Shown: positions 3,971 through 41,447, numbered from the stretch's first letter. The stretch is 64,000 nucleotides of DNA from Limnochordia bacterium (GCA_050951545.1 JBMNJG010000011.1:32001-96000), one strand, 5' to 3'. Made by a program: numbers and translations. The notes: generated by a model from the letters alone, not told the origin.

Positions 3971-5886
3971 GCCTGGTACGGCTCACCGGAGTAGAGCGTT
4001 ATTTTGGTGGTCAGCGACTCTTCGGTCCGGCGAACTCTGTGATGCACGCAGGGGACAAGATCGGACTGATCGGGCGTAACGGTGTGGGCAAGACCACTCT
4101 GCTGAGACTCATTGCTGGCTTGGATCATCCTGATGAAGGCGAGGTGCTGGTTGCAGCTCGGGCCAAGGTGGGTTTCTTGTCCCAAGGCGTGGCGCTTGAT
4201 TTTCGCGGTGCCCTGTGGGAGTACGCGCTGCAAGCCAGAAGCGACGCTCTGCATATGGCTGAGCGTTTGCGGCAGCTGGAGGCGGCAATGGCTGATCCGG
4301 TCGTGCACTCGGATGAGGCAAGGCTTGCTCACGTTCTGGATGAATACGCTCGGGTTCGAGGCTGCTATGAGCAAGCCGACGGTTACAGCAGTGAAGCCGC
4401 GATCCGTGCCGCGCTCTTTGGGGTTGGTTTCTGCGAGGCTGATCTTACACTACCTGTATCGGCCCTGAGCGGAGGCCAGAAAGCGCGGGCAGCATTGGCC
4501 CGTTTGCTCTGCAGCTCGCCGGATCTGTTGCTCCTTGATGAGCCTACAAATCATCTCGACATGGCGGCGACTGAATGGCTGGAGAACTATCTGAAGGAGT
4601 ACAGGGGTTCGCTGATCGTAGTCTCGCATGACAGGTCCTTTCTGGATGCAGCGGTCAACCACATATGGGAACTTGAAGAGAACCAGCTCCATACCTATCG
4701 AGGCAACTACTCATCGTCCAGAGTGGTGCGTGAGGAAAGACGAGTGCGAGCTGCCAAGGAGTATCTGTCGCAGCAAGAACAGATCACTGAGCTCGAGGCG
4801 TACGTCCGCCGCTACAAGGCGGGTAATCGGGCCACCATGGCTAGAAGTCGCGAGCGCGCTCTGGCGCGTCTCACGCCTGTCGACAAGCCGATGAATGAGG
4901 CGGGACCGATGCGCCTGCGTCTAGCGGCAGGTCCTCGCTCAGGGCGAGAGGTCGTCTGGCTAGACGGAATATCCAAGGTCTACGGTAACAAGCCAGTGCT
5001 CGATATCGATCACCTTCGTGTGTCTCGCGGCGAGCGCATAGGTGTCATTGGGCCCAACGGCTCGGGCAAGAGCACATTGGTCAAGATCATCGCCGGATTG
5101 CTAGCGCCTTCTGCAGGGAAAGTGGGCTATGGCAAGGACGTGGTGATCGCCTATTTCAGTCAGGAACTGCTTGATCTGAACGCTGACCTGACAGTGATCG
5201 AGGAGCTCCTTCAGGTCCGCGACATGAGTTTCTTCGAGCTCCGGAGTCACTTGGCTCTCTTTCTGTTCCAAGGGGATGACGTATACAAGAAGGTGGGTGT
5301 GCTGAGCGGGGGCGAGCGCAACCGGCTGACACTGGCGAAACTGGTCTTGTGTGAAGCGAACCTCCTGTTGCTAGATGAACCCACCAATCATCTCGATATC
5401 CCCAGCCAGGAGGCTGTTGAGGCAGCGCTACAGGAGTACGAAGGCACGCTGATTTTCGTATCACATGACCGGTTTTTCTTGAGTCGGTTGGCCCAACGCA
5501 TCTGGTCTCTTTCGGACACCGAACTCCAGGATTTCGCCGGAGGCTACCAGGAGTTTCGCATGTCGCAACAGGCATTGTCGCCAGAGCCAGACCCGCAGAG
5601 AGTGAGAGTGAAGCGGTCAGATTCTGATGCAGAGGAGCTTGCGCGGCGCCGGGCATTGCATAGGGCACAGGCTGAGCTCGAGGAGTTGGAGCAAGCAATT
5701 GCTGTGGCTGAGGAGCAGAAGCATTCCCTAGAGGCCGTCCTTGCCGATACCACTGTGTATGCGGATGCCGAGCGGGCTAAGCAGACAGCTCAGGCACATC
5801 GAGAGATTGTAGCCAAGCTTGAAGCTTTGTATGGGCAATGGGAACAGCAGGCGAGTGTCGTAGATGACAGCATCATGGGCTGCTAG
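3967..5886 (+). CDS. ABC-F family ATPase with C-terminal coiled coil
   Basis: Two ABC cassettes (GRNGVGKT/LSGGQ/LLDEPTNHLD; GPNGSGKS/LSGGE), arm and linker, no TM segments. Confidence 0.93.
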   Translation: MSLVRLTGVERYFGGQRLFGPANSVMHAGDKIGLIGRNGVGKTTLLRLIAGLDHPDEGEVLVAARAKVGFLSQGVALDFRGALWEYALQARSDALHMAERLRQLEAAMADPVVHSDEARLAHVLDEYARVRGCYEQADGYSSEAAIRAALFGVGFCEADLTLPVSALSGGQKARAALARLLCSSPDLLLLDEPTNHLDMAATEWLENYLKEYRGSLIVVSHDRSFLDAAVNHIWELEENQLHTYRGNYSSSRVVREERRVRAAKEYLSQQEQITELEAYVRRYKAGNRATMARSRERALARLTPVDKPMNEAGPMRLRLAAGPRSGREVVWLDGISKVYGNKPVLDIDHLRVSRGERIGVIGPNGSGKSTLVKIIAGLLAPSAGKVGYGKDVVIAYFSQELLDLNADLTVIEELLQVRDMSFFELRSHLALFLFQGDDVYKKVGVLSGGERNRLTLAKLVLCEANLLLLDEPTNHLDIPSQEAVEAALQEYEGTLIFVSHDRFFLSRLAQRIWSLSDTELQDFAGGYQEFRMSQQALSPEPDPQRVRVKRSDSDAEELARRRALHRAQAELEELEQAIAVAEEQKHSLEAVLADTTVYADAERAKQTAQAHREIVAKLEALYGQWEQQASVVDDSIMGC

Positions 5887-5906
5887 CAGGGAAAGAGGCA
5901 GGCAAT

Positions 5907-6989
5907 ATGCGTGTGCTTGATCGTTACACCTTCAGGGAATTCAGCGCGCCGTTTGTCGCCTGCGTGGCTGGTTTCACCGTGATGCTCTTGTCGGGTATTG
6001 TCTTTGAGTTGGCCGACCTCATTGTCAGCAAGAGAATGCCAGTCTGGATCGTGCTCCGCCTTCTTCTGTACAAAGTGCCGAGCGTCATGGTGATTACCCT
6101 TCCCGCAGGAGCCTTGTTTGCCACGCTCTTGAGTCTGGGCCGCTTTGCCAAAGACAGTGAGCTTACAGTCATGCGAGTCACTGGCTGCTCGTTTCGCCGT
6201 CTGGCCTTGCCCGTGTTCGCGGCAGCAGCCATGGTCAGTGTAATGACCTTTGCTCTAAATGAGTCTGTAGTCCCTGCGGCGAATCACCAGGCAGAGAATC
6301 TCTATCGCAAGGCGATTCTGCGTGACGCTCTAACTCAAGTGCAAGCGAATGTGTTCATGCGGGGACCGGAAGGTCGCACGTTTTTCGTGGGTGAGGTGGA
6401 CCGTAAGACGCGTCGCCTCCGGTCAATCATGATCTTTGAGCCACTGCGGGGTGCTGACTCGCCTTTTCCTGCGGTGATCACTGCTCGGGAGGGGTCGTAC
6501 ACGGAGGAGACCTGGCATCTGCTCGCTGGAGTACGCCGTGTGCTTGATGAAGATGGCTATGTACTTCAAGAGACGGGCTTTGATAGGCTGGATATTCCTG
6601 TGCAAGACAGCGAGAAGTTGTTTGGAGAGCAGAAGACGACCGATGAGATGACCCGACGTGAGCTAGGTGATCACGTTCGCCTATTCCAGAAAAGTGGCAT
6701 TGACGTTCAGCGGTTTGTGGTCGATTACCATCTGAAACTCGCCTTGCCTCTGGCTGCAGTGATCTGGGTCTTGGTGGCAGCACCCATGGCTGTAGCTTCT
6801 GCGCGAGGGGGCCGCTTCTATGGTGTGGTGGTCAGCATTGTTGTGGCGTTTGGCTACTACGTGGCAGTGGGCATCTTCCGTTCGCTTGGGGGCAATGGCG
6901 CCATCCCACCAGTGTTGGCCGCATGGAGCCCCAACGTGCTTTTTTCTCTAATGGGCCTAGCCCTTCTCATCTGTGTGGAACGCGTTTGA
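5907..6989 (+). CDS. LptF/LptG family LPS export permease
   Basis: MRVLDRY start, DSELTVMRVTG, 3+3 TM layout with periplasmic domain, PPVLAAWSPN. Confidence 0.9.
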   Translation: MRVLDRYTFREFSAPFVACVAGFTVMLLSGIVFELADLIVSKRMPVWIVLRLLLYKVPSVMVITLPAGALFATLLSLGRFAKDSELTVMRVTGCSFRRLALPVFAAAAMVSVMTFALNESVVPAANHQAENLYRKAILRDALTQVQANVFMRGPEGRTFFVGEVDRKTRRLRSIMIFEPLRGADSPFPAVITAREGSYTEETWHLLAGVRRVLDEDGYVLQETGFDRLDIPVQDSEKLFGEQKTTDEMTRRELGDHVRLFQKSGIDVQRFVVDYHLKLALPLAAVIWVLVAAPMAVASARGGRFYGVVVSIVVAFGYYVAVGIFRSLGGNGAIPPVLAAWSPNVLFSLMGLALLICVERV

Positions 6990-30785: not shown

Positions 30786-31120
30786 TGAAAGTACGATGGA
30801 TGGTCGCTGGTATGTCCCTTGCGACGTACTAGAGGAAAGTCCGGACTCGGCTGTTTCGCGCAAGCGAGCAGAAAGTTGGTGCCCGGCGCAAGCCGGGGCG
30901 GAGCGATCCGACGGAGGCGAACAGAGACCCTTTGGGCTCTTATTAGCTATAAAAGGACCATAGAGACGAGCTTGTCCGGCAACGGACAAGGTGGAACGCG
31001 GTAACCCCCTCCACCGAGCAACCCAAATTATGGTAGGGGCAGCCCCAATGGGGCCAGCAGGTTCGCCTGCTGAGAGAGATGACCATCCTCGACAGAATCC
31101 GGCTTACAGTCGTGCTTTCA
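30786..31120 (+). ncRNA. rnpB: RNase P RNA
   Basis: GAGGAAAGTCCGG ... ACAGAATCCGGCTTAC (P4), P1 TGAAAGTACGA/TCGTGCTTTCA, GGAACGCGGTAA, GAGCAACCCAAAT. Confidence 0.93.
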
Positions 31121-31258: not shown

Positions 31259-31334
31259 GAGCCCGTAGCTCAGGTGGCAGAGCACCGGACTTTTAATCCG
31301 GGTGTCCAGGGTTCGAGTCCCTGCGGGCTCACCA
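31259..31334 (+). tRNA. tRNA-Lys(TTT)
   Basis: 76-nt cloverleaf: GAGCCCG/CGGGCTC acceptor, CCGGA-CTTTTAA-TCCGG anticodon arm, GTTCGA, encoded CCA. Confidence 0.97.
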
Positions 31335-31701
31335 AGAAAAAACACCTCCACGAAGCGGTTTTCGGGAGGTGTTTCTTGTTTGTTGGGGGTGATCCAAACG
31401 GCGTTTTACGACCAAAGTACGACCAATAGAATCTAGCGAGCGCCTTTCTCCTTGCTGAAAAGCTCATCGAGTTTGGCGGCGGCATCCCTCTGCAGTGTGG
31501 GCATGACGTGGCTGTAGGTGTCCAGGGTGAGGTTAATGCTAGAGTGGCCCAGACGTTCCTGCACGATCTTGGGGTGAACCCCCTTGGCGAGAAGCAACGT
31601 GGCAGCGGTGTGGCGCAGATCATGAAAGCGAATGTCGGGAAGCCCGGCTTCTTTCAGCAGAGGTTTGAACGAACGACGCACTAGATTCTGCTTGCGGATA
31701 G
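31289..31701 (+). repeat. 413-bp direct repeat, copy 1 (copy 2 at 37638-38050)
   Basis: Same sequence from ACTTTTAATCC to GCGGATAG; one mismatch seen (CTTGCTGAAA vs CTTGCCGAAA). Confidence 0.92.
31337..31383. terminator. Intrinsic terminator between tRNA and integrase
   Basis: AAACACCTCC...GGAGGTGTTT hairpin flanked by A and T runs. Confidence 0.75.
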
Positions 31702-32572
31702 GGCCACCTTCGGTGTCGCAGAAAACCCATGGCGAAGCTGTGAGTCCTTCTGCTAGCATGTGTTTCCTGTGTTCACGTAGGGCTTGCACGGCTAGCTCTG
31801 GCAGAGTGATAGACCTTCGTCCTGCGGCGCTCTTGGGTTCGCCCACAACCAGAGCGCTACCCACGTTCTTCAGTGTTCGCTGCACTGATAGCGTAGCCTG
31901 TGCAAGATCAATGTCGGACCACTGTAGGCCAAGCAGTTCCCCTTGGCGCATCCCTGTTGTCGCTGCCAACACGTAGAGGGCATAGAGGCGATCCTGTTCT
32001 GCTACCTGCCAGAACTGCTCCACCTGCTCAGGTGTAAGAAACTGCATCTGCTTCTTTGGCACCTTTGGACGATCCACGGCGGCAGCTACGTTCTGCGGTA
32101 CCATATCCCACCTGTGGGCTTGCCTAAGAGCACGATGCAAGACAGCATGAATGAACTGGACACTTCGTGGCGACAGCCCCTCTTCGAGCTTGCGTGAGTA
32201 GAGCTGTTGCAGGTGAAGAGGCGCGAGCTTGTTAAGGCGCAGGTGGCCAATCTCAGGGTTTATGTGCAGGCGAACGAGCTGTTCGTACCTCTCGTAGGTG
32301 GTATCCTCTATGGTTGGCCTGGCAGTATCCTCCAACCATCTTGTCATGTACGTGGCCACGGTGAGCTTCTCCATGTCTGGCGGTAGGCCAGTGCTTGGGT
32401 CCTGCTTCAGCTTTTCGAGCTTCTCCTGCACTTCGGCCTTCGTCTTGCCGTAGACGGTCTTGCGTATGCGCTTGCCTTGGGCATCGTAACCAAGCGAGAG
32501 CTTACCCTCCCATCGACCGTCATCCCTCTGAGAGATCGACCCTTCTCCCCTTCCTCTGCGAGCGCGGGCCAT
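31433..32572 (-). CDS. int: Tyrosine integrase
   Basis: RGRGEGSI arm-binding N-terminus, TGMRQGE (R), PKS (K), FHDLRH, ERLGHS, TLDTYSH (Y). Confidence 0.96.
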   Translation of the reverse strand: MARARRGRGEGSISQRDDGRWEGKLSLGYDAQGKRIRKTVYGKTKAEVQEKLEKLKQDPSTGLPPDMEKLTVATYMTRWLEDTARPTIEDTTYERYEQLVRLHINPEIGHLRLNKLAPLHLQQLYSRKLEEGLSPRSVQFIHAVLHRALRQAHRWDMVPQNVAAAVDRPKVPKKQMQFLTPEQVEQFWQVAEQDRLYALYVLAATTGMRQGELLGLQWSDIDLAQATLSVQRTLKNVGSALVVGEPKSAAGRRSITLPELAVQALREHRKHMLAEGLTASPWVFCDTEGGPIRKQNLVRRSFKPLLKEAGLPDIRFHDLRHTAATLLLAKGVHPKIVQERLGHSSINLTLDTYSHVMPTLQRDAAAKLDELFSKEKGAR

Positions 32573-32608
32573 GGCTCATCTCCCCTTCCTGTCAGTCGCG
32601 TTTGCAAC

Positions 32609-33475
32609 CTACTTCGTTGCTTTCGTGCTAGCCCTACGGCGGTGCTTGGCAACCTGCACCTTGTTGTTACAGGCGCGATTACAGTACTTCGCGCGCTTGT
32701 TTGCGGGGACAAAGACTCTACCACAACCAGGGCACTTGCGGATGCGATGCGGCGCTACCATATCTAGGACGGTGCGAAACCTTATCCAATCGAGCAGCGA
32801 GCGGCACTGCCCACCCAATTCCCACTTACTAGCGTCCTTGTCATACACTGGGGCAAGCTGGCATCCGTGTAGGGTGAATAGGCGGCATACTTCCGGTGCC
32901 TCCCAGGTGTTGCCTTCCTCTGCCGCGCGAACGGCCCGGTCCACGTCACGCTGATAGGCTCCCGCCGCGGCACAGAAGGTTTCAAGCGGTTCGCAAAACG
33001 TGTGCAGGTACTTGCCTGAGGGGTTCACTCCCTCAGGGGAGGGTCTGTAACGTTCGCTTAGATACCATCCGGAGCAAGGCCGGTCTTCGAATCCCTTGGG
33101 TGGCTTTTTTTCCTCAGCAAGGAATGGCTCCAGATTGCGGTACTCAGGAACCTCCCAGAGTCCAAGCAACCCCCACTTGTTGACGAACTCTAATATGGCG
33201 TCCCTACTAGAAAGATCAAGCCGCGCCAAGTGCATGTGTGGAGTGCTTTGGTAGGCGCTGTCCTCGTCGCGGTATGCCCCTTGAATTGCTGGAAGTTCCC
33301 CTTCGTGAAGAGGGTCATACCATTCCAGTTCGGATTCCTCCAGCGCCGTGATGACAGGCACGGTGGGTTCATGTGATTCGGGTGGCTGCGGTTCCTCAAC
33401 AATCTCATACTGCAAACGCCACCAACTATCCCTCCTTTGGAAAGCATCTCTCCCCTGTTCCTCGGCTTCGAACAT
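32609..33475 (-). CDS. CGNR zinc-finger protein, putative element regulator
   Basis: C-terminal IRKCPGCGRVF...KYCNRACNNKVQVAKHRRR; ATG 33475 after GGGGTGA RBS. Confidence 0.8.
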   Translation of the reverse strand: MFEAEEQGRDAFQRRDSWWRLQYEIVEEPQPPESHEPTVPVITALEESELEWYDPLHEGELPAIQGAYRDEDSAYQSTPHMHLARLDLSSRDAILEFVNKWGLLGLWEVPEYRNLEPFLAEEKKPPKGFEDRPCSGWYLSERYRPSPEGVNPSGKYLHTFCEPLETFCAAAGAYQRDVDRAVRAAEEGNTWEAPEVCRLFTLHGCQLAPVYDKDASKWELGGQCRSLLDWIRFRTVLDMVAPHRIRKCPGCGRVFVPANKRAKYCNRACNNKVQVAKHRRRASTKATK

Positions 33476-33528
33476 CCCTATCACCCCTGCCATGCAGTGT
33501 CGCCGCATTCGGCGCGATGTAAGCTGTG

Positions 33529-33590
33529 TGTAATCTTTACAGGTTACATCCCCTGTCCTATAGTGTAGGCGAGACGTGGCTATTATGCAA
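33529..33590. promoter_or_regulatory. Overlapping divergent promoters with operator palindrome
   Basis: + TTTACA-17-TATAGT (33536-33564); - TTGCAT-17-TACACT (33590-33562); TGTAATCT-ttac-AGGTTACA at 33529-33548. Confidence 0.65.
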
Positions 33591-33619
33591 GCGCACGAAC
33601 AAGGAAAGGGGTTAAGCCA

Positions 33620-33877
33620 ATGAGTGACGCGAAGCAGCGAGACGGACTAACGACAGTGAGAAAAGCGGCTGACTACCTGGGGCTATCGAGGGCGGCGGTG
33701 TATCGCTTAATGGACCGCGGTGACTTGCCATATGCCAAGTTGGGATATGCCAGGCGAGTGCGATGGGCAGATGTGGAGGCCTACGTAGAGGCAAGCATGG
33801 TGCGGCGTCGATGGGTAGCTGGCATGTTGAGCAACGACAACAACGACAAGCGCCACCGTGGCAAGCGGTGGCGCTAG
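33620..33877 (+). CDS. Excisionase-like HTH protein (HTH_17)
   Basis: LTTVRKAADYLGLSRAAVYRLMDRGDLPYAKLG..RRV. Confidence 0.88.
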   Translation: MSDAKQRDGLTTVRKAADYLGLSRAAVYRLMDRGDLPYAKLGYARRVRWADVEAYVEASMVRRRWVAGMLSNDNNDKRHRGKRWR

Positions 33878-33888
33878 GAGGTGCCTTC

Positions 33889-34494
33889 ATGGAGACACGA
33901 CACACTACTAGTTTACCACAGACGAAAGCCAATGTGCACCTGTTCGCTGCCATGCTGCAGAACGGCGCACCTGAACCCGTAGCTGAACGCGTAGTCATGG
34001 ACCTGTTGCGCCAAGAGACCGGTGCCAGCGAGACGGCCCGGAAGGACGGTAAGCAGCGCCTTATCCATGTGGCTGAATGCCTGGCCCGGTATTTCGTACC
34101 GCGGCCTATTATTCGCGAGATTCTGACTGAGCTAGAGCAGCAGCATGGCCTTCTTCTAGGCGATAAGGAGCTGCAGAAGCTTATCACGGCGGCGATCACG
34201 GCGACAGGTGAACCCGACGAACCAAGACGGCAACCGGTTCCCCTGGCGCTGGAGCTGAATGCCCCTCCTGACGGTTGGAGGCGGCATGTCATTCTAGGAG
34301 CTACGGGCGATGACCGTCACAAGACGATTCGTTCTCTGGCAGGAAGCCTGTTGGCCCGGGGTGTCGATCCATACGTTACCGCGGCATTGGTGACTGCTTG
34401 GGCATGGATGCGATGTGAGCCACCTGTTCCTGCTAACGAGGTGCTTGGCATCGTCAATTGGGTCGCCAAGCGCCATGCAGAGGGGGTGGCGTGA
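33889..34494 (+). CDS. Stand-alone primase C-terminal (PriCT-1-like) domain protein
   Basis: RHKTIRSLAGSLLARG...CEPPVPANEVLGIVNWV; ATG after GGAGG. Confidence 0.7.
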   Translation: METRHTTSLPQTKANVHLFAAMLQNGAPEPVAERVVMDLLRQETGASETARKDGKQRLIHVAECLARYFVPRPIIREILTELEQQHGLLLGDKELQKLITAAITATGEPDEPRRQPVPLALELNAPPDGWRRHVILGATGDDRHKTIRSLAGSLLARGVDPYVTAALVTAWAWMRCEPPVPANEVLGIVNWVAKRHAEGVA

Positions 34495-36242
34495 TGCAAG
34501 AGCTGGACGGACTGGATGCATTGGCCAAAGCGAAGGAGCAGCAAGACGACGAATCCGCGAAGGGCAAGCCTACTCAAAGGGAACTGCTGATTGAGATTGC
34601 CAAGACAGCGGAGCTATGGCACACGCAGGACTTCGAGCCTTGGGCGACTGTAACTTGTGATGAGCATCGGGAACATTGGCCCGTGATGTCTAGCGGCTTT
34701 AGGCGATGGCTAGAGGCGACCTACTACGCACAGCACGAGAGCGGCCCATCGAGCCAGGCAATGACCGATGCACGAAACACCATTGCCGCGATGGCTTGCT
34801 ACAGCGGCCAGCAGCACGAGGTGTTTATGCGTGTAGGTGAGGTGCAGGGGCGCATCTATATCGATCTAGCCAACGATGCTTGGGAGGCGGTGGAGGTTAC
34901 GGCCACAGGCTGGCGGGTGGTGTCGAATCCTCCTGTGCGCTTTCGGCGGGGGCGTGGCGTGGCTCCTCTCCCCCGTCCTGTGGCGGGTGGCAGCATTGAA
35001 GAGCTTTGGCCTTTCGTCAACGTACCAGATGATGAACAACGGGTAATGGTTGTATCTTGGTTGGTAGCGGCCCTGCGGCCTACAGGTCCCTATCCTGTGT
35101 TGATTTTGCAGGGCGAACAGGGTTCGGCGAAAAGCACAACAGCGCGCGTCCTACGTTCGTTGGTAGACCCGTCAAGCGTATCGCTAAGGACGGCACCGCG
35201 GAACGAACAAGATTTGGCCATACATGCTAACAACGCATGGGTAGTGAGTCTTGACAACCTTTCAGGTGTTCCTGTGTGGCTGTCGGATGCGATTTGCCGC
35301 GTGGCAACGGGCGGCGGTTTCGCTACTCGGGAGTTGTACACAGATGGCGAAGAGGCCCTGTTCGACTACCAGCGGCCCGTGATTCTTAACGGCATCGACG
35401 ACGTTGCTACCCGCCATGACTTAGCAGACCGTTCGCTGAATCTGGTTCTACCACCCATCCCCGATGCTGAAAGAAAAACCGAGGCAACCTTCTGGCGAGA
35501 TTGGGAGCTTGTTCGCCCGCGGGTATTTGGTGCGTTGCTTGATGGCGTATCGACTGCGCTTCGGCGGGTGGATTCTGTCCACCTGCCGCGCAAGCCGCGC
35601 ATGGCTGACTTTGCGGTGTGGGCAACGGCAGCAGAGGAGGCTTTCGGGTGGCCCGAGGGCACAGCGCTTAAGGCGTATGCCGAGAACCGCGCCGAAGCGG
35701 TAGAGCTAGGGATCGAGAGTGACGCAGTAGCCTTCACTGTGTGCGAGCTGTTGAAGCACAAACCGGACGGCTTCGAGGGCACCATGACCGAGCTGTTGGA
35801 TGAGTTGGAAGACCACGCGAGCGAGAAGATGCGAAACGCCAAAACGTGGCCCGGTTCGGCCCGGAGTCTGTCTAACCGGTTGCGGCGGAGTTCTACGGCT
35901 TTGCGACAGGTTGGCATTAATGTTGACCTGGACAGGCGCGCCGGCGACAAAAAGGGGACCCGACTTGTGAGGATAGATAGTACCCACAAAGTAGCGTCAG
36001 ACACGTCAGATGCGTCAGATGTGGCCCCTAAAGGCGATAACAACGGGGTTTCTGCGTCTGACGCAACGTCTGACGCAAACCCATCATCGAACATACTTGC
36101 GTCAGATACATCGTCAGACAGGAAAAGCCCTTCGTTGCGCGGTTTACAAGGTATGTCTGACGCAACTGACACATCTGACGCAAGAAAACACACACTATCT
36201 GCCGCGGAGGGGAATAAGGCTTCGGAGGTGTTCGAGCTATGA
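34494..36242 (+). CDS. Phage/plasmid-type replicative P-loop ATPase/helicase
   Basis: YPVLILQGEQGSAKST Walker A, LDN, TGG...RELYTD, NGID, DLADR, RMADF, C-terminal winged-helix-like region. Confidence 0.8.
   Translation: MQELDGLDALAKAKEQQDDESAKGKPTQRELLIEIAKTAELWHTQDFEPWATVTCDEHREHWPVMSSGFRRWLEATYYAQHESGPSSQAMTDARNTIAAMACYSGQQHEVFMRVGEVQGRIYIDLANDAWEAVEVTATGWRVVSNPPVRFRRGRGVAPLPRPVAGGSIEELWPFVNVPDDEQRVMVVSWLVAALRPTGPYPVLILQGEQGSAKSTTARVLRSLVDPSSVSLRTAPRNEQDLAIHANNAWVVSLDNLSGVPVWLSDAICRVATGGGFATRELYTDGEEALFDYQRPVILNGIDDVATRHDLADRSLNLVLPPIPDAERKTEATFWRDWELVRPRVFGALLDGVSTALRRVDSVHLPRKPRMADFAVWATAAEEAFGWPEGTALKAYAENRAEAVELGIESDAVAFTVCELLKHKPDGFEGTMTELLDELEDHASEKMRNAKTWPGSARSLSNRLRRSSTALRQVGINVDLDRRAGDKKGTRLVRIDSTHKVASDTSDASDVAPKGDNNGVSASDATSDANPSSNILASDTSSDRKSPSLRGLQGMSDATDTSDARKHTLSAAEGNKASEVFEL
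35995..36180. repeat. Iteron-like heptamer array (CGTCAGA/TCTGACG), putative ori
   Basis: Forward copies at 35995, 36004, 36013, 36100, 36112; reverse copies at 36057, 36069, 36156, 36174 plus a variant at about 36165. Confidence 0.8.
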
Positions 36243-36673
36243 CACCCATGCAGTTGCTGATGGAGTGTAGACGGCGTGGCATCGAGCTATCGGTAAACGG
36301 CGACAAGCTCCGCGTGGTAGCTAAGAAGGGCACCATGACCGACGAGCTGCGGGCGGCCTTGCAGCAGCACAAGGCTGCGCTTATGGAGCTGTTGCGTGGG
36401 CCAACAGACGAAGACATAGCTGAGGCCATGCAGCAGCTAACCGCTAGAGGTTGGGCACTGATGGATTCGGCTGCACTAGGTGAGCAGGTGGCGCTATGCA
36501 AGGACGTGGCGACCGCCAGACAACACCTAGCCAGTGGCACGGTAGCCTTCACGTTGGAGGAAGCCCTGTCAGCCATTGATGCGAACCTGTCAGTAATCGA
36601 GCTGCACGCCGTCGTCAAGGCAAAGCTGCTGCTAAACGGGACAATGACAGGCACTAGGGAGGTGCAATCATGA
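36239..36673 (+). CDS. TubC-N-terminal-docking-like domain protein
   Basis: LLMECRRRGIELSVNGDKLRVVAKKGTMTDELRAALQQHKAALMELL; ATGA-coupled to helicase. Confidence 0.7.
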   Translation: MTPMQLLMECRRRGIELSVNGDKLRVVAKKGTMTDELRAALQQHKAALMELLRGPTDEDIAEAMQQLTARGWALMDSAALGEQVALCKDVATARQHLASGTVAFTLEEALSAIDANLSVIELHAVVKAKLLLNGTMTGTREVQS

Positions 36674-36852
36674 GGGAGAGGCGCTACGAAGTCCGAGATA
36701 GTTTCGGCAGGTGTCCGGAGTGCGATAGGGCTTCATTCCGACGGCGGGAACGTTACGACAAGCTACGGGACAAGCTGCGGATCGAGCAGCGGTGTCTAGA
36801 CTGTGGCCATAGGCGCTTCAGCGTCAAGGAGGGGGTGCCAGCATGGCTGTAA
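36670..36852 (+). CDS. Small zinc-ribbon protein
   Basis: CPEC...CLDC, GGAGG RBS, ATGA overlap with upstream gene. Confidence 0.65.
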   Translation: MRERRYEVRDSFGRCPECDRASFRRRERYDKLRDKLRIEQRCLDCGHRRFSVKEGVPAWL

Positions 36853-37120
36853 CCTATGCGTGTCCAACATGCAGGCGTTCGTTGACCGTGTACGTTGGCA
36901 AGAGGAAACCTGTCTGCACTCGTTGCTGCAAACCCATGGAACGCAAACCGAAGCGAAAGGCAAAGACGGCGTAGTTGCCAGCCAGCCTCGCGCGCGCGCG
37001 TACTGGTCTGCAAACCCCGCGTGTGGCGTTGTGCAAACCAGCCTCGCGCGCGCGTAGGTGTGCCATTCGCGGCACCTAAAACCCCTCTTGATAAAATTAT
37101 ACAAATCGGCCTGCACACTT

Positions 37121-37149
37121 TAGACTGATATTTTCTGGCCAGCTATAAT
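37121..37149 (+). promoter_or_regulatory. Sigma-A promoter with AT-rich upstream element
   Basis: TAGACT-17-TATAAT preceded by TTGATAAAATTATACAAAT. Confidence 0.6.
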
Positions 37150-37637
37150 GCATGACGGCTGCATGTGTAAGAAGGGGGGGTGGGGGGGCGGGGGTACCCT
37201 CCTGCTTGCCCGTGTCACGTTGCGTGCCACAACGGGCGAAACCGCGACACCATACGTGCCAAGACTGGCGAAGGCATCCCTGCTGCAGGCGTATCATCAC
37301 ACCAGCGGCACGAGGAGGGCCCTATAAGCGACGCAAACCCTGTACGGGTGTATTTGTACCCGCCACCTGTCTGCGCGGCTAAACAGGGCCTTAAAACGCC
37401 TCGCCAAACACTCCCGCCTTCCTTGGGTTGATTTACGACCAATAGCTTTCGGGAACACCAAACCAAGCGCTTCACGATGGGCATTAGCAGGTGTGGTCTT
37501 CTACGACCAAAGTACGACCAATGGGCAAGAAACGGGCATGAAAGCACGGACGCAGAGAGAATCCAGAAATGGCCTTAAGCGCAGGTAGAGTACGGTATGG
37601 AACGTGTATAGACGTTGTGGGAAAGCAATCCAACCGA

Positions 37638-38050
37638 ACTTTTAATCCGGGTGTCCAGGGTTCGAGTCCCTGCGGGCTCACCAAGAAAAAACACCTCCAC
37701 GAAGCGGTTTTCGGGAGGTGTTTCTTGTTTGTTGGGGGTGATCCAAACGGCGTTTTACGACCAAAGTACGACCAATAGAATCTAGCGAGCGCCTTTCTCC
37801 TTGCCGAAAAGCTCATCGAGTTTGGCGGCGGCATCCCTCTGCAGTGTGGGCATGACGTGGCTGTAGGTGTCCAGGGTGAGGTTAATGCTAGAGTGGCCCA
37901 GACGTTCCTGCACGATCTTGGGGTGAACCCCCTTGGCGAGAAGCAACGTGGCAGCGGTGTGGCGCAGATCATGAAAGCGAATGTCGGGAAGCCCGGCTTC
38001 TTTCAGCAGAGGTTTGAACGAACGACGCACTAGATTCTGCTTGCGGATAG
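37638..38050 (+). repeat. 413-bp direct repeat, copy 2: tRNA-Lys 3' half, terminator and integrase 3' end
   Basis: Matches 31289-31701. Confidence 0.92.
37782..38050 (-). pseudogene. Integrase C-terminal fragment truncated by IS3
   Basis: FHDLRH...TYSH tail nearly identical to int 31433-31701; homology ends at the IS end. Confidence 0.9.
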
Positions 38051-38076
38051 CGCGCTAACCCCCTATAATTGGACAC

Positions 38077-38984
38077 CTAGAGCCGGATAGCGGTTGGTCT
38101 CGCAGTATTGCTCACACATGCTTCATGGTACTCGGCCGGGGGTACATCCCGCAAGGAGCCGTGAAGCCTGCGGTGGTTATAGTAATCCATGAATTCAACG
38201 ACTGTCACGTAGGCCTCAGCGAAGCTGTTGAACTCGTACCGGCTGAAGCATTCATCTTCCAGTATCGAGTGAAAGGCTTCGATGTGGGCGTTTTTGTTCG
38301 GAGTCCTTACTGGTATGCATTCATGCTCCAATCCGAGTCCCTCGCATGCTGCTTGGAAGCGATGGCTCACGAATTGCGGTCCGTTATCCGAGCGGATAAT
38401 CACGGTAGCATCGCCAGTCTCAGTAGCTCGGCGCTGGCAGGCCCCCTGAATGCTTGCAGCGGCTTCCTCGGCCGTGCAACTGAGCCCAATGTGATAGTCG
38501 AGCACCATGCGATCGTACACATCTATCACCGTCTGTACGAAGAAGAAGCGACGTTCTTCGGCAATGTAACCATACTTGATGTCAGTCTCCCACAGCTGGT
38601 TGATACCTGTGATTTCCCTGTTCGTGGCTACCTTGCGTTTCGCAAGGCGAGGCCGCAATCGACGTTGAGTCTGCTTGATTCTGAGCCCGTGCTCTCTCTC
38701 TAACCAGCTCGTCAGCTTGCGATAGCCATAGGGGCAGCCGTCGCCGCTGATGGCAGCCAAGAGAAGCTCCTTTATGCACTCGTCACTAACGATCTCGCCT
38801 TTCGTGGTGAAGGAGAATCCGGGAATTGGTCGCCCACGCGAGCCGCCTTGCTTTCGCTTTTTGCCTCCTTTCGGGTTTTGGAGGCGCCAGTAGTACGTTG
38901 AGCGCGAAACACCCGCGAAGCGTAGAACCCAAGACACTGGGTAGCCTTTTGCGATCCATTTGTTGGCTACCTCGAGACGCTCAT
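38077..38984 (-). CDS. IS3 transposase OrfB (DDE), probably with an internal deletion
   Basis: YGYRK, WETDIKY, RSDNGPQF, NAHIEAFH, YNHRRLH; the NxKKVxRL segment after GLRI is missing. Confidence 0.85.
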
Positions 38985-39298
38985 CTAAAGATGGGTCCCC
39001 TTTTCTCGAGGTCACGCAAAATGGCAATCTTGAGGTCTTTCTCGCCCAGAAGGCGCTTAAGCTGGTCGTTCTCCCGCTCAATCCCCTGCGTACGTGGATC
39101 AGGCCCCCCGCTAGAACGCGAGCGCTCTAGCGGGGAGGTAAGGGCGTCAACACCATGCTCTTTGTAGCTTCTGGCCCATCGGTTTACGACTGCGGGGGCG
39201 AGTCCGTAACGTCTGGCCACAATACTCCCGGTGGCAGTTTCGATAGCCTCCTGAACAACTCGGACCTTGAAACCGACATCGTACTTTTGGCGGCTCAA
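38981..39298 (-). CDS. IS3 transposase OrfA (HTH)
   Basis: KYDVGFKVRVV...VARRYGL...LKRLLGEKDLKIAILRDL. Confidence 0.85.
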   Translation of the reverse strand: MSRQKYDVGFKVRVVQEAIETATGSIVARRYGLAPAVVNRWARSYKEHGVDALTSPLERSRSSGGPDPRTQGIERENDQLKRLLGEKDLKIAILRDLEKRGPIFR

Positions 39299-39665
39299 GA
39301 TAAACGCTCCCTCCGTCTTTTCAAGCGAGAGGCGAAGGGGGTGTGACACGGTTTCAGCTCGCCTCCCCCGGGGGAGGCGAGGACCCAACACCCTTCTTCC
39401 ATACCTTACCGTATCTGGTCCGATTGTCCAATTCCATTAGGGGGCCTAAGAGGACCAACTCTCGGGTAGGGTTTCCGGTAAGTGTGCCCATCGTGCGGAT
39501 GCCTACCGTATGCAGAGAAATCCTCGTACGTGTCAATGTTGAAAGCCGTGTTCTGCGTCGCCGATAGATGACAGCTCCAGACTTTGGCCCGGAGCTATTT
39601 CCTTGGTTGGGCAACGTAAGATAGGAATATGAGCACACAACTGAAACTAAGAATTATGGTAGACA

Positions 39666-39983
39666 GTGAGCAACAAGCAGCAGGTGAAGCTGGCCAGGGA
39701 AGGAAGATCTCAACTGCGACGGTTAGGAAAACGCTTTTTGGCAGGGCTTGTCAGTCGCCGAAATGTGGGTTATGATGAAGAACATGAAACGGCAGAGGGG
39801 AGGGAGTCCCTGGTGGCTGAGTTGATCGAGAAGTTCCGCCGGGTACAGTTGCCGCCACATCAGGAAAGAGGGATGGGGCTTCAACCCAACTGGAAAGACG
39901 CTATAACCAAGGAGTTCGCAGAGAAAGTGTTCGACGCTGCGCAGAAGCACCGTGACGCTATCAGAGAGCTCGAGAAGCACTGA
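39666..39983 (+). CDS. Putative antitoxin of the Doc toxin
   Basis: Small ORF directly upstream of doc; C-terminal amphipathic helix KHRDAIRELEK resembles Doc-antitoxin tails. Confidence 0.55.
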   Translation: MSNKQQVKLAREGRSQLRRLGKRFLAGLVSRRNVGYDEEHETAEGRESLVAELIEKFRRVQLPPHQERGMGLQPNWKDAITKEFAEKVFDAAQKHRDAIRELEKH

Positions 39984-39996
39984 TATTAGTGCTCAA

Positions 39997-40500
39997 ATGA
40001 GTGCGGTTTACCTACCCCATGTTCTTTTCATCCACTTTGTCGGCATCGACATAGTGTTCGAAGGGTATGGTTCTCCGAAGGAAAGCCGTGGGCTTCGCGG
40101 TAAAGGTGAACTCCTGCAATCTGCTCTTGCTCAACCCTACCAGACTTTTGGTGGGGTTGAGCTATATCCCAAGACCTTAGACAAAGCCGCCGTCTTACTC
40201 TTCGGGCTGACTAACAACCATCCATTCGTGGACGGTAACAAGAGGACAGCGCTGCTTACTACAGCTACATACTTACTGCAAAACGGGTATGATATTAGGG
40301 CAACTGAAAAGCAATGGGTAAGGCTGATGCTTGAAGTGGCCTATGGGAAATCGCAGCGAGGTATCCGTTTATGGTTGAAGAAGCATACGATCTTGATTAA
40401 GGATTTGTCAAAACATAAGGTGCTCGATCCGAAACTGGCAAAACGCAAGGTGACATTCCTGGAGGCTTTTGTGAGGTTTCTCGGTAGAGATCGTCAATAG
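39997..40500 (+). CDS. doc: Death-on-curing (Fic/Doc) toxin
   Basis: LLQSALAQPYQTFGG.ELYP...KAA, HPFVDGNKRTA. Confidence 0.9.
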   Translation: MSAVYLPHVLFIHFVGIDIVFEGYGSPKESRGLRGKGELLQSALAQPYQTFGGVELYPKTLDKAAVLLFGLTNNHPFVDGNKRTALLTTATYLLQNGYDIRATEKQWVRLMLEVAYGKSQRGIRLWLKKHTILIKDLSKHKVLDPKLAKRKVTFLEAFVRFLGRDRQ

Positions 40501-40536: not shown

Positions 40537-41014
40537 TGTGGTAGATTAGCCATACCCACCGCAGCGCCCATCCAGGAGTCGTGTCCACCCGCCAGTCCAT
40601 CGCGCCCGTCATATGGCGAACTCATTGAGGCCCGTCAAATCGAGCTAGGCTTTGACTGAAAAGGACGCCGGCCGAGATCCCAGGTTTGGTAGATGGGAGG
40701 GAAGAGGGTGGTCGTCCCTCTGGTACTAGTCTTGCCTGGCGCTAGTGGCGCGTTCCTACTTCGCCTCCGGCCAAGCGGGGCATGTGTATGGGTGACGAGA
40801 TTGATGTCGCGTGATCGGACGGCCACGCTTGGATGGCAGGTGAAGGTGCCAGAGCCCTTCGCCCTTCGGGGGCAAAAGCTTGGTCATGAGTTGGTCATGA
40901 CTCGGACCGCACGGGGCAAGATGGGGCCGCTCTAGGCGGACCGGTTGTAGGCAACGGGCCAGCGAGACGCATTACGAGTAGCCGCGGCGGCATACACCAG
41001 ACTCGGGCAATGCA

Positions 41015-41110
41015 ACCTCTAATGCGGGTGTCCTGGGTTCGAGTCCCAGCGGGCTCACCAAACGAAAACGCCTTCCCTAAGCGGTTTCTGGGAGGGTGTT
41101 TGGCTTTGTT
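41015..41110 (+). other. Third diverged att site: tRNA 3'-half fragment plus homologous terminator
   Basis: CCTCTAATGCGGGTGTCCTGGGTTCGAGTCCCAGCGGGCTCACCA then AAAACGCCTTCC...GGAGGGTGTTT. Confidence 0.8.
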
Positions 41111-41447
41111 GGGGGGGGTGGACAAGGTGACGATCTCAGATCTGCCATCCGGTCTGTCCTCCATTTGCGCTGGTCCCTGTGGGTACACGCAAGCTCGCCG
41201 GGCGTATCTGCCTACAAGGGCATGAGGCTCCTGCTAGTGAACCTCAGACGATGGTAATACACAAAGCAGTAAGGAATGGGGCAAGACGAAAAGGAAATAA
41301 ACACGCCGCTCGTAAATAATAAATAGTCATTGAGTATCCATGGCATGAGACATACCTGATAATGCGGGCTGTCTTGCAGCTCCTTGACGGACTAATGTCC
41401 CTTTGCCATGAAGGATGCCTCAAGAGTGATACCATAGGAGGGGTATT

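Follow-up and report, generated by a model that had tools for sequence, protein, structure and literature searches.

How can an integrated element that carries genes for excision and replication, and none for packaging, be controlled, and how could it spread? The question is raised by a unit of 6,349 bp (positions 31289 to 37637) in a stretch of 64,000 nucleotides from Limnochordia bacterium (GCA_050951545.1 JBMNJG010000011.1:32001-96000), which we call the window and which we analysed at its full length. Facing its replication genes, this unit has a gene for a CGNR zinc-finger protein. On the evidence presented here, we lean towards a functional, helper-dependent minimal integrative replicon of a lineage resembling phage-inducible chromosomal islands (PICIs), repressed by a dimeric CGNR-family regulator. 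The novel aspect is an ABATE/CGNR-fold protein at the repressor position of many kinds of elements; the class of element itself was already known.

The CGNR gene and its place in mobile elements

In the window, the CGNR-family protein of 299 amino acids (aa) is encoded on the minus strand (32609..33508; the true start may be Met12), and its finger scores 24.2 bits with zf-CGNR over residues 255-292, the cut-off being 24. A spacer of 111 bp separates this gene from xis, the first gene of a rightward operon for excision and replication. Within this spacer lies the divergent control region (33516..33564), a candidate operator composed of an inverted repeat and a rightward promoter-like site. The inverted repeat, GATGTAAGCTGT-N11-ACAGGTTACATC (33516-33550), has 12-nt arms that are perfect but for one position and an 11-nt spacer, and shares positions with the -35 of TTTACA-17-TATAGT (33536-33564), the best of the rightward promoter-like sites. 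Its half-sites are the sole two zero-mismatch matches in the window. With two mismatches allowed, the half-site gave 8 matches against 6.7 expected, which is no enrichment, and the single inverted repeat stands alone. The whole 35-nt candidate operator had no match in the metagenome contigs of JGI.

The place of the CGNR gene is that of a classical repressor, in phages and satellites as well as in mobilisable islands and minimal elements. We took 20 loci around the best genomic matches to the family, 19 of them with a called family open reading frame (ORF); the other one, L089, had none and was excluded. Synteny was scored by Pfam searches on the neighbours within 5 kb, a head-to-head arrangement being one with an operon that is led by an HTH_3, HTH_19 or HTH_31 and/or an HTH_17 gene and/or encodes replication proteins. 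The gene was divergent from such a helix-turn-helix (HTH) or replication operon in 15 of the 19 loci. What it faces varies widely: HTH_3 (L101), HTH_17 (L100 and L103), HTH_3-HTH_17 (L095), HTH_3-primase-helicase-TubC_N (L102), HTH_17-D5 (L087), HTH_17-CHC2-D5 (L094), HTH_17 and Prim-Pol::DUF927 (L096), HTH_19-HTH_17-DnaD-like-DnaB and then ClpP (L088), HTH_31-HTH_17-RepA_N-int-NikA-relaxase (L090 and L091), RepO-DnaC (L084), DnaG::DnaB (L085), Prim-Pol::AAA_25 and TubC_N (L097), or sigma-like, DUF2800, SSB and PolA genes (L093). The head-to-head layout was not assignable in the other four loci (L086, L092, L098 and L099). It was also present in all five loci outside the window in which the CGNR gene is linked to the helicase discussed below (C3, L053, L040, L041 and L039, the latter identical in L043). 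Among the sampled loci are prophages, satellites with a capsid gene, islands with a relaxase and further minimal elements, and a small Cro-type HTH_3 gene is also present in many of them.

A preliminary description of this DNA had proposed that the CGNR protein stands in place of a repressor. The divergent position in the sampled and the helicase-linked loci agrees with this proposal as far as the place of the gene is concerned, the repressor role being a prediction from sequence. The same description had suggested a possible satellite family marked by control through the protein, which does not hold, since members of the CGNR family are also encoded by the phage phi1207.3, by capsid-bearing satellites and by relaxase-bearing islands.

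The protein consists of an ABATE-like body, a 4-Cys treble-clef finger (C259, C262, C276 and C280) and a basic C-terminal helix. Proteins encoded at the same position in helicase loci show weak, consistent BLAST similarity to each other, and have in common an xFxNxxGLLG motif and a C-terminal CxxC...YCxxxC finger. Searched against 1.84 billion representatives, a profile of six family sequences retrieved 182 with E<=1e-10 and, at the looser limit of E<=1e-3, 4,736, of which many weaker ones match in the finger only. In 47 of 400 other genomes of the phylum the family profile had a match. Searches with the single protein found less: tblastn gave nothing in 50,697 phage records, and a word-indexed protein search gave three matches only. 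Among 92 aligned members, C259 and C262 are invariant and F108, G113, L238 and C280 nearly invariant. Pfam assigned zf-CGNR to 22 of the 92, HTH_23 to 19, HTH_28 to 17 and DUF6076 to 9. An extra C-terminal HTH tail, found in 17-19 of the 92 members, is absent from the window protein and present in the C3 copy of the same genome and in the homologue P0002. We also noted a Bacillota cluster of the Atlas (332-aa representative) in which 98-100% of the members have HTH_3/HTH_19 and 88% have DUF6076; as a lead only, this hints that the body of the family could be a regulator module with exchangeable DNA-binding heads, including those of the Cro/cI type.

The fold was modelled with AlphaFold2 from the 92-row alignment, with a predicted local distance difference test (pLDDT) of 88.1 and a predicted template modelling score of 0.87; a 6-row alignment had given an unusable model (pLDDT 41). 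The top Foldseek match of the model was 3H0N, which combines ABATE and CGNR (E 6.8e-3, prob 1.00, 130 columns). VIA-align also placed 3H0N at the top (Z 6.8, root-mean-square deviation 5.1, 152/184 residues aligned, model residues 64-292), followed by the YacG finger (Z 3.5). A VIA-align Z below 8 can reflect a common arrangement, and in favour of this match are its distance from all others, its coverage of most of the chain and its agreement with the finger assigned by Pfam. According to the model, the window protein is a member of a large family with an ABATE-like fold. The structure 3H0N is that of Jann_2411, the prototype of DUF1470 (PF07336), and is the sole clear structural match; both proteins end in a treble-clef 4-Cys finger. 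They differ in sequence (16% identity), in insertions and an additional N-terminal beta region of the window protein, and in that Jann_2411 is a chromosomal alphaproteobacterial protein. In passages of its report, the treble-clef finger and basic helix of 3H0N were judged likely to bind DNA (PMC2954205).

A homodimer model of the window protein gave an ipSAE of 0.58 vs 0.00 for the best control, with at least 74% of the contacts agreeing between runs and a partner pLDDT of at least 75. Of 30 solved homodimers, 20 attained this mark, as did 1 of 23 monomers; these counts hold roughly here, as the protein's own alignment was used. The modelled interface (residues 192-255) would adjoin the finger.

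In the literature searched, which covered few subscription journals and no supplements, we found no publication treating CGNR/ABATE proteins as regulators of mobile elements and none on DUF6076, and CGNR appeared together with prophage or zinc finger only in the annotation tables of phi1207.3 and Tn6164. In the passages of those reports that describe them, phi1207.3 orf15 and Tn6164 Orf6 are annotated only as zinc-finger or unknown proteins (PMC4260502, PMC3485107), Orf6 being an unknown protein with a C-terminal CGNR motif that adjoins a sigma factor (PMC3485107). The family member of L093 matches phi1207.3 orf15 at E 2e-16, and orf15 lies between the LlaJI restriction genes and the polymerase module of the phage. 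In contrast to the window protein, these are proteins of about 385-400 aa, encoded in a 52-kb phage and a 100-kb island (PMC4260502, PMC3485107).

A 6.35-kb unit in a tandem array at tRNA-Lys

ORF calls and Pfam place the integrase and CGNR genes of the unit leftward and the xis-PriCT-helicase-TubC_N operon with its two Zn-ribbon genes rightward. The integration target is tRNA-Lys(UUU) on the plus strand (31259..31334; found by ARAGORN, and at 70.3 bits by the tRNA family of Rfam). An intact tyrosine integrase of 379 aa follows on the minus strand (31433..32572; PF00589, 1.6e-29; Phage_int_SAM_3, 2.2e-13; phrog_1, 5.9e-88), at 36 nt from the CGNR gene. All genes of the operon are on the plus strand. 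The first one (33620..33877) encodes an excisionase/AlpA-like HTH_17 protein of 85 aa (HTH_17, 6.4e-12; TIGR01764 'excise', 44.5 bits vs 28.8; phrog_66), which matches Phage_AlpA of Pfam at 19.8 bits, under the 21-bit cut-off. The second one, likely starting at ATG 33889 (33889..34494), encodes a PriCT-like protein of 201 aa (PriCT_1, 17.4 bits, below the cut-off of 21.1; phrog_695 polymerase/primase, 2.6e-4) in which Pfam recognises no primase catalytic domain. The third gene product is a replicative helicase/ATPase of 582 aa (34494..36242), with a P-loop (Walker A GEQGSAKS) and only a sub-threshold, VapE-like Pfam match. A TubC_N-like protein of 144 aa (36239..36673; PF18563, 1.6e-16, 60.6 bits) and two overlapping 4-Cys Zn-ribbon peptides of 60 aa and 43 aa (36670..36852 and 36843..36974), with sub-threshold Pfam matches only, complete the operon.

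All eight genes are open. A 12-nt gap with a GGAGG ribosome-binding site separates xis from PriCT; the other junctions overlap, by 1 nt between PriCT and helicase (TGATG), by ATGA at both the helicase-TubC_N junction and that of TubC_N with the first Zn-ribbon gene, and by 10 nt between the two Zn-ribbon genes. The genes and directions given in the preliminary description are accordingly correct, and so is the coupling of most of them by overlapping stop and start codons, found at four of the five rightward junctions. It had also reported that capsid, terminase, relaxase and cI-type HTH genes are absent. Indeed, the Pfam and PHROGs searches of the element proteins matched no capsid, terminase, portal, tail, lysis, relaxase, Mob or Cro/cI-type HTH family, nor did they find a NikA/MobC, coupling protein or FtsK-like Tra gene. 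PADLOC found no defence system in the element, its sole match being HTH-only, of the excisionase to mad1. The G+C content is 0.55-0.60 inside as well as outside the element, with no compositional contrast.

The unit is the first member of a tandem array and not a lone element. Positions 31289-31701 are repeated directly at 37638-38050 with one mismatch over 413 bp, and 6349 bp is the period of this repeat, in which the 46-nt 3' part of tRNA-Lys(UUU) and a terminator hairpin are followed by two arm-type repeats and by the last 269 nt of the integrase gene. The core of the attachment (att) site corresponds to the 3' 46 nt of the tRNA (31289-31334), which are supplied by the element. A tyrosine integrase thus adjoins a tRNA whose 3' part is repeated at the far end. 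The second copy of the repeat (37638..38050) has the core, the terminator, the arm sites and the integrase 3' end, with a remnant ORF at 37782-38030, and its integrase is cut by an insertion sequence (IS) of the IS3 family (~38051..39452, minus strand; rve and HTH_Tnp_1 domains), further copies of which are on contigs C14 and C7. A third att copy, found by repeat search at 41014..41115 on the plus strand, comprises the tRNA 3' half and terminator, is 79% identical and is probably the distal end of the array. The near identity of the 413-bp repeat points to a recent second integration at the same site. At least two integrations at tRNA-Lys, and probably three, would have been followed by an IS-linked deletion. 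The unit of 6349 bp in the preliminary description is therefore exact as a period, but it is the head of an array with a repeat that includes the integrase 3' end, an IS3-cut second copy and a third copy. As part of the interpretation stated at the outset, we are somewhat inclined to see in it an intact 6.35-kb integrative, self-replicating, non-autonomous element (a 'hitcher') of Bacillota-type bacteria, and the newest member of the array at tRNA-Lys(UUU).

Candidate arm-type sites are present on both sides of the unit. Two TACGACCAA repeats (31407..31426, plus strand) lie between the tRNA terminator and the integrase stop, on the putative P' arm. The nonamer has seven exact matches in the window, all seven beside att copies: copies 1 and 2 each have two towards the integrase, and the right end of the element has the other three (37434, 37502 and 37513). 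The chance expectation is 0.28, and none of 100 shuffles reached seven. Arm-type sites of an integrase would be distributed in this way over the two arms of attP, and these sequences are candidates for them.

The last 662 bp (36975..37636) are non-coding and form the candidate P arm, possibly with an ori or pac region. They contain two 23-nt repeats (36976 and 37032), a promoter-like site (37121-37149) and a G-run, and are unique in the genome, with no similarity to the C3 element or to the remaining sequence. When the proteins of all related loci were compared by tblastn with 36600-37700, only the two Zn-ribbon genes and short chance matches were found, some of the latter stemming from ORFs that overlap tRNA genes; no protein-level remnant of TerS, TerL or capsid genes was seen in the right arm. 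Rfam gave no family there besides a marginal tRNA-like match that includes the att core: 37611-37680, the right end plus core, is matched as a complete tRNA at 29.5 bits (gathering threshold 29), with no call by ARAGORN. Either a pseudo-tRNA or an attP with tRNA mimicry beyond the core may account for this match.

Public sequencing runs were also compared. At least 59% of the sampled words were present in each of fourteen DNA runs, which come from 13 metagenome studies of anaerobic digesters, bioreactors and landfills; one of these runs may be the source of the window. Pieces of the element occur with 0-1 differences, over contigs of 1.3 kb and 0.9 kb, in anaerobic-digester, landfill and other metagenomes. 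Four runs (three DNA, one RNA) were compared as contigs, for which depth and coverage gaps are uninformative; no contig of these runs spans the element, and circle junctions are masked by the 413-bp repeat. As the attP and empty-site junctions match the chromosome for 413 bp, the junction-read test suggested in the preliminary description cannot work with short reads. Two joints in run X13 were rejected as evidence of a circle, one being a diverged integrase relative and the other an in-register att hybrid (41104->31379) with only 52 nt on one side. This hybrid joins the terminator variant of the third copy to the integrase-side arm of copy 1 or 2, and may be a strain variant or a recombinant att. 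In the RNA library, contigs cover the 3' end of int, the junction of int with the CGNR gene and parts of the latter, a weak hint and no proof of transcription; almost no listed contig lies over xis to TubC_N, an absence that is no sign of silence.

Two other features lie within or next to the array. Between the IS3 copy and the third att copy, in DNA unrelated to the element, are stranded a 105-aa ORF and an overlapping gene for a Fic/Doc protein of 182 aa (39666..40500, plus strand; Fic, 4.2e-16; PDC-S23 candidates of PADLOC). They are cargo of an older array member, probably with a toxin-antitoxin function or as a candidate defence pair. Directly upstream of the target tRNA-Lys lies a class-B RNase P RNA (30792-31111, 186 bits).

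Relatives of the replication module and known satellites

The genome (3.64 Mb in 16 contigs, 94% complete) has a second element with the same replication module. This C3 element (contig C3:116754-127127, 10.3 kb) is bounded by tRNA-Val(GAC) and a 47-nt repeat of the tRNA 3' part. It is 88.6% identical to the window in DNA over 2,841 bp, comprising the end of xis, PriCT, the helicase and most of TubC_N, and the encoded proteins are 92% (PriCT), 93% (helicase) and 75% (TubC_N) identical. The remaining proteins are more distant, with 40% for xis, 41% and 55% for the Zn-ribbons and about 35-43% for the integrase. In addition, C3 has TerS (Terminase_4, 2e-11; phrog_83), TerL (TerL_ATPase; phrog_9) and two ORFs without assignment; its Zn-ribbon genes sit between TerS and TerL, and no capsid or portal gene was found in it. 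C3 shows decay, its integrase being split over two frames and its CGNR gene into ORFs of 176 aa and 106 aa. For the pair of helicases dS is 0.35 and dN 0.038, and the ratio dN/dS of 0.11 indicates that the gene was kept under selection since the copies diverged. A further element with TerS and TerL and no capsid gene is the 10.0-kb L042, at a tRNA-Lys(CUU); elements such as C3 and L042 may be truncated capsid-forming PICIs (cfPICIs) or a terminase-only kind of satellite. The genome of the window also has on contig C10, likewise at tRNA-Lys(CUU), an island (L011, 7292-12600) whose integrase is 73% identical to that of the window and whose cargo of PadR, an ArsP_1 permease and an S-adenosylmethionine methyltransferase may be an arsenic-related module.

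The helicase had no Pfam family above threshold, no NCBIfam match and no PDB match by sequence search; the nearest named clusters of the Atlas, leads only, are PriCT_1, DUF5906 (NrS-1-type helicase) and VapE. With the window protein as query, relatives were found at E<=1e-10 in 17 of 400 other genomes of the phylum, and a profile of eight members found 373 in one-per-species genomes, as well as 59 loci in IMG/VR. They span Bacillota (Tepidanaerobacteraceae, Thermosediminibacteraceae, Fervidicola, Thermovorax), Rubrobacteraceae, Chloroflexota, Planctomycetota, Acidobacteriota, Alphaproteobacteria and others. Among isolated phages, the sole match was in Microbacterium phage Zeta1847 (32.5% identity), where it is annotated as helicase or primase. 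In relatives a primase is often fused to the helicase or precedes it: Prim-Pol in L039 and L044, a DnaG-type primase in L053 and a CHC2 ribbon in L040 and L042. Within 10 kb of the best 80 of the 373 genomic loci we counted an integrase in 43, HTH_17 in 14, the CGNR gene in 10, TerL in 4 and capsid/protease in 1, counts made with seed proteins, which limit the sensitivity for virion genes.

A TubC_N-like gene lies just downstream of the helicase in 15 of these 80 loci, and the domain also follows it in C3, L040, L041, L107 and L108. Small TubC_N proteins directly 3' of a replicative helicase were noted in L097 (13890-14243), L102 (5752-6400), L107 (4016-4366), L108 (2736-3152) and the window, the gene recurring whether the helicase is of the family of the window or an AAA_25/DnaB-like RepA; the L108 copy has a sub-threshold match to a TrmB-type winged HTH.

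An att-repeat search at 16 tRNA-adjacent helicase loci gave an exact repeat of 30-70 nt in 6 and none of at least 14 nt in 10. Elements bounded by att sites measure 6,108 bp (L193), 7,930 bp (L244), 8,225 bp (L087), 9,177 bp (L197), 9,681 bp (L168), 9,966 bp (L085), 10,035 bp (L042), 10,169 bp (L186), 10,364 bp (L094) and 12,922 bp (L180). Some relatives clearly resemble satellites or phages. L087 contains int, CGNR, HTH_17, a D5 helicase and an HK97 capsid gene within its 8,225 bp; L145, from IMG/VR, has the helicase, TerL and a protease::capsid fusion; and in L163 the int-CGNR pair faces the helicase, followed by HNH, methylase, TerS and TerL. L106 (IMG/VR) is a contig of 7.9 kb with a 123-bp terminal repeat, which carries int, the helicase and a prohead-protease fragment. 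Other relatives are as bare as the window unit. L102, about 7.2 kb from int to CGNR, has small ORFs, two TubC_N genes, a primase-helicase and HTH_3 divergent from CGNR, with no packaging gene, and the 6,108 bp of L193, bounded by tRNA-Lys, contain int, the helicase and a small post-helicase protein that is TubC_N-like by eye and was missed by the TubC_N seed search. In L187, int and two small genes (one PIN-domain toxin-like by eye) are followed by CGNR divergent from xis-helicase. In this locus and in L217, L235, L168 and L214, xis and/or the helicase are faced by int and/or the CGNR gene; the source records of the five belong to Rubrobacteraceae, Dehalococcoidia, Eubacteriales, Tepidanaerobacteraceae and Chloroflexota.

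We made two further observations on these loci. TerL is read as two consecutive ORFs (Terminase_6N and Terminase_6C) in the unrelated L042 (12786-14154) and L053 (86-1508), which could be a natural split or a programmed frameshift. The 10-kb tRNA-Trp element L085, which has a CGNR-family gene, contains three 23-bp tandem iterons (5831-5909) 3' of DnaG::DnaB, likely to be a replication origin.

Known systems were compared as they are described in passages of the reports cited. With PICIs and Staphylococcus aureus pathogenicity islands the window element has in common an integrase at the att site, a divergent control region, an excisionase that is AlpA-like, a replication module that resembles the primase-helicase type, the lack of tail and lysis genes and a small size (PMC10085698). 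Pfam and PHROGs found the integrase and no terS, no gene for capsid morphogenesis or packaging redirection and no interference gene; the replication proteins are a helicase of a primase-helicase-type family and a PriCT-like partner with no catalytic primase domain. Moreover, 6.35 kb is below the size of a typical PICI, and the regulator is a CGNR/ABATE zinc-finger protein, whereas PICIs have an HTH protein of the Stl/cI type. Sets of int, AlpA and primase are called 'Type C' in the wording of SatelliteFinder, which excludes them as possibly defective PICIs or other elements (PMC10085698). The window element falls in this PICI-like space, at best as 'Type C', because its replication module is common to the TerS/TerL-bearing C3 and its helicase family occurs in cfPICI-like elements. 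A protease-capsid fusion is described for the cfPICIs of Firmicutes (PMC10085698), and relatives with the same helicase carry TerL and protease::capsid (L145), an HK97 capsid (L087) or TerS and TerL (C3, L042 and L163); the window element differs in having no terL, portal, capsid or head-tail connector gene. Nor did Pfam and PHROGs find in it the capsid, portal, tail, terminase or lysis genes of a prophage, or the relaxase of an integrative and mobilisable element (IME) or integrative and conjugative element (ICE).

A parallel in gene content is with PICMIs (phage-inducible chromosomal minimalist islands), which have three core proteins for excision and replication and no packaging genes, and are carried as concatemers in helper capsids (PMC10803314). 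The window element likewise has a minimal gene set that serves excision and replication alone and lacks homologues of terS, sid and ppi (PMC10803314). By description, PICMIs are fis-adjacent, belong to Vibrionaceae and depend on a virulent phage, whereas the window element is at a tRNA-Lys in a host with a class-B RNase P RNA, and the passages of PMC10803314 report no CGNR regulator. Virion-encapsidated integrative mobile elements (VEIMEs) are also small integrative elements with integration and replication genes; they were found in virions as concatemers, whereas the window element is known from its genes, and they have other hosts and gene families (bioRxiv 10.1101/2022.07.26.501625). Tycheposons likewise have a tRNA-targeting tyrosine recombinase, xis and primase/helicase; their tandem arrays, with partial tRNAs between the members and broken integrases, match the architecture of the array in the window, and among them are both PICI-like forms and forms without packaging genes, joined by common integration and replication modules (bioRxiv 10.1101/2020.12.28.424599). 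They differ, again by description, in their hosts (Prochlorococcus and other marine bacteria) and hallmark genes, and the window element has no cargo module.

These comparisons narrow what is new. As for minimal satellites that lack packaging genes, PICMIs (PMC10803314) and VEIMEs (bioRxiv 10.1101/2022.07.26.501625) had been described before, according to the passages cited. Its suggestion of an undescribed satellite family holds in that the layout recurs in other phyla, and fails in that the replication module is that of C3 and belongs to PICI-like space. The element does lie outside described PICIs, PICMIs and IMEs by its lack of terS, cfPICI genes, a fis site and a relaxase, while a place in PICI-like 'Type C' is the nearest assignment that passages of the published scheme allow.

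Alternative explanations and proposed working

The sequence itself shows the anatomy, the att array, the arm sites, the intact genes, a helicase under purifying selection, and which fold, family and conserved position the proposed regulator has. Our interpretation draws in addition on the kinship with att-bounded relatives of 8-10 kb bearing a capsid (L087) or TerS and TerL (C3 and L042), on the recurrence of the packaging-less layout (L102 and L193) in other genomes and on the precedent of spread without packaging genes reported in passages on PICMIs (PMC10803314). Several points weigh against it. Excision, circular forms, replication and packaging are deduced from sequence, and both the window and the C3 copies have only the PriCT-like protein with no recognisable primase catalytic domain, unlike their relatives. 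A cos or pac site was not found, the right arm being without likeness in the genome. No helper is apparent there either, as the genome gave no match to the HK97 capsid (PF05065) or portal (PF04860) families and its sole TerL is that of C3. Close relatives of the whole element were not found, only the one 53%-identical CGNR homologue P0002, and an alignment of two CGNR sequences gave no confirmed relative in metagenome or genome contigs. As to the regulator, its zf-CGNR score assigns it to the finger family by a marginal value, the protein has no Pfam ABATE match and no DUF6076 (PF19553) match at E<=0.01, and the success of the modelled homodimer may reflect likeness to the solved 3H0N crystal. 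In the literature searched there is no CGNR/ABATE protein with a demonstrated regulatory role, and the position of the gene is compatible with other roles as well, such as a sensor or an exclusion factor.

The unit could instead be a decayed remnant: of a cfPICI-like satellite or small prophage, only the left arm (int-regulator-xis-pri/rep) would be left after loss of the packaging and capsid genes, an arm that may still excise and would be unable to spread. One argument comes from C3, where the paralogous module is followed by TerS, the same two Zn-ribbons and TerL, so that the Zn-ribbons of the window may be the last remains of a lost packaging module. In the same sense, helicase relatives in IMG/VR have TerL and protease::capsid genes, the gene-free right arm could be eroded DNA, the array is decaying, with an IS3 in its second integrase copy, and int, AlpA and primase sets may be defective, as passages of PMC10085698 have it. 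The preliminary description had itself named a deletion remnant as its alternative. Against it, the right arm has no trace of a TerS, TerL or capsid pseudogene, and descent from a C3-like ancestor needs two clean deletions, one of a 79-aa gene and TerS and the other of TerL and all beyond, while outside the exchanged 2.8 kb the proteins of the two elements are only 40-75% identical. Furthermore, the genes are intact and coupled, arm sites are present on both sides, the helicase is under purifying selection, and packaging-less elements recur in unrelated genomes. We regard a remnant as rather unlikely, yet as the foremost of the rival explanations. Tandem accretion at att sites is typical of ICE, IME and cis-mobilisable element arrays too, and counts for another possibility, that of an IME or integrated plasmid that excises and replicates as a small plasmid, its transfer depending on a conjugative helper acting at a cryptic oriT, or on vesicles, and phages having no part in it. 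No phage is visible in the genome, and the CGNR gene heads the relaxase-bearing islands L090 and L091. Yet Pfam and PHROGs found in the element no gene for a relaxase, for NikA/MobC, for a coupling protein or for an FtsK-like Tra protein, its helicase family adjoins terminase and capsid genes in IMG/VR and occurs in Microbacterium phage Zeta1847, and its closest paralogous element bears TerS and TerL; this explanation seems to us quite improbable.

A different doubt concerns the regulator. The HTH_17 AlpA-like protein might act alone as an activator, as in PICIs of Gram-negative bacteria and in PICMIs, whose activation is governed by AlpA according to the passages on it (PMC10803314), and the CGNR protein would then have another role, such as helper interference, exclusion or partition, and not that of a repressor. 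The small Cro-type HTH_3 genes of many loci, and the lack of a CGNR/ABATE protein with a tested function in the literature searched, speak in its favour. On the other side are the head-to-head position kept in 15 of 19 loci, the added HTH tails of family members, the fusion of DUF6076 with HTH_3 in the Atlas cluster (a lead only), the finger and helix for which DNA binding was judged likely in passages on 3H0N (PMC2954205) and a dimer model that would fit the inverted repeat. We consider this unlikely, a judgement independent of those on the other explanations.

For a helper-dependent replicon under a CGNR repressor, we infer repression, inducer, excision, replication and helper-dependent transfer as follows. 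In the integrated state, a dimer of the CGNR/ABATE protein, co-transcribed leftward with int, would bind the inverted repeat over the -35 and keep the xis-PriCT-helicase-TubC_N-Zn-ribbon operon silent. An inducing signal would lift repression; its likeliest source is a helper phage, infecting or induced, one of whose proteins the ABATE-like body would sense. Xis and Int, the latter on the TACGACCAA arm sites, would excise the circle, which the helicase, its PriCT-like partner and a borrowed primase would replicate. The DNA would leave as concatemers in helper capsids without packaging genes of its own, in the manner of PICMIs. Should this reading fail, the locus would be an ordinary decaying tRNA island.

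In a wider sense, and as a tentative proposal that we hold with less than even confidence, CGNR/ABATE-fold (DUF6076-like) proteins might be a widespread and so far unrecognised class of master regulators of integrated elements across several phyla, analogues of cI and Stl in which a zinc finger and a sensor domain replace the HTH. They would control temperate phages of the phi1207.3 type, capsid-forming and minimal satellites and mobilisable islands. A working example would be the element in the window, as a minimal satellite without packaging genes in Gram-positive anaerobes and a counterpart of the marine PICMIs. The structure of CGNR/ABATE has been known since 2009 and, to our knowledge, its role was never addressed by experiment. 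If the proposed reading is true, this would be the first function for the fold, a lysogeny-type switch for phages, satellites and mobilisable islands, in a compact system of one protein, one 35-bp inverted repeat and one promoter. Annotation would improve as well, given that 47 of the 400 sampled genomes of the phylum carry a family member. Moreover, minimalist satellites, which carry integrase, excisionase, regulator and replicase and no more and were so far shown only in marine Vibrionaceae and plankton, would extend to the anaerobic Gram-positive bacteria of digesters and landfills.

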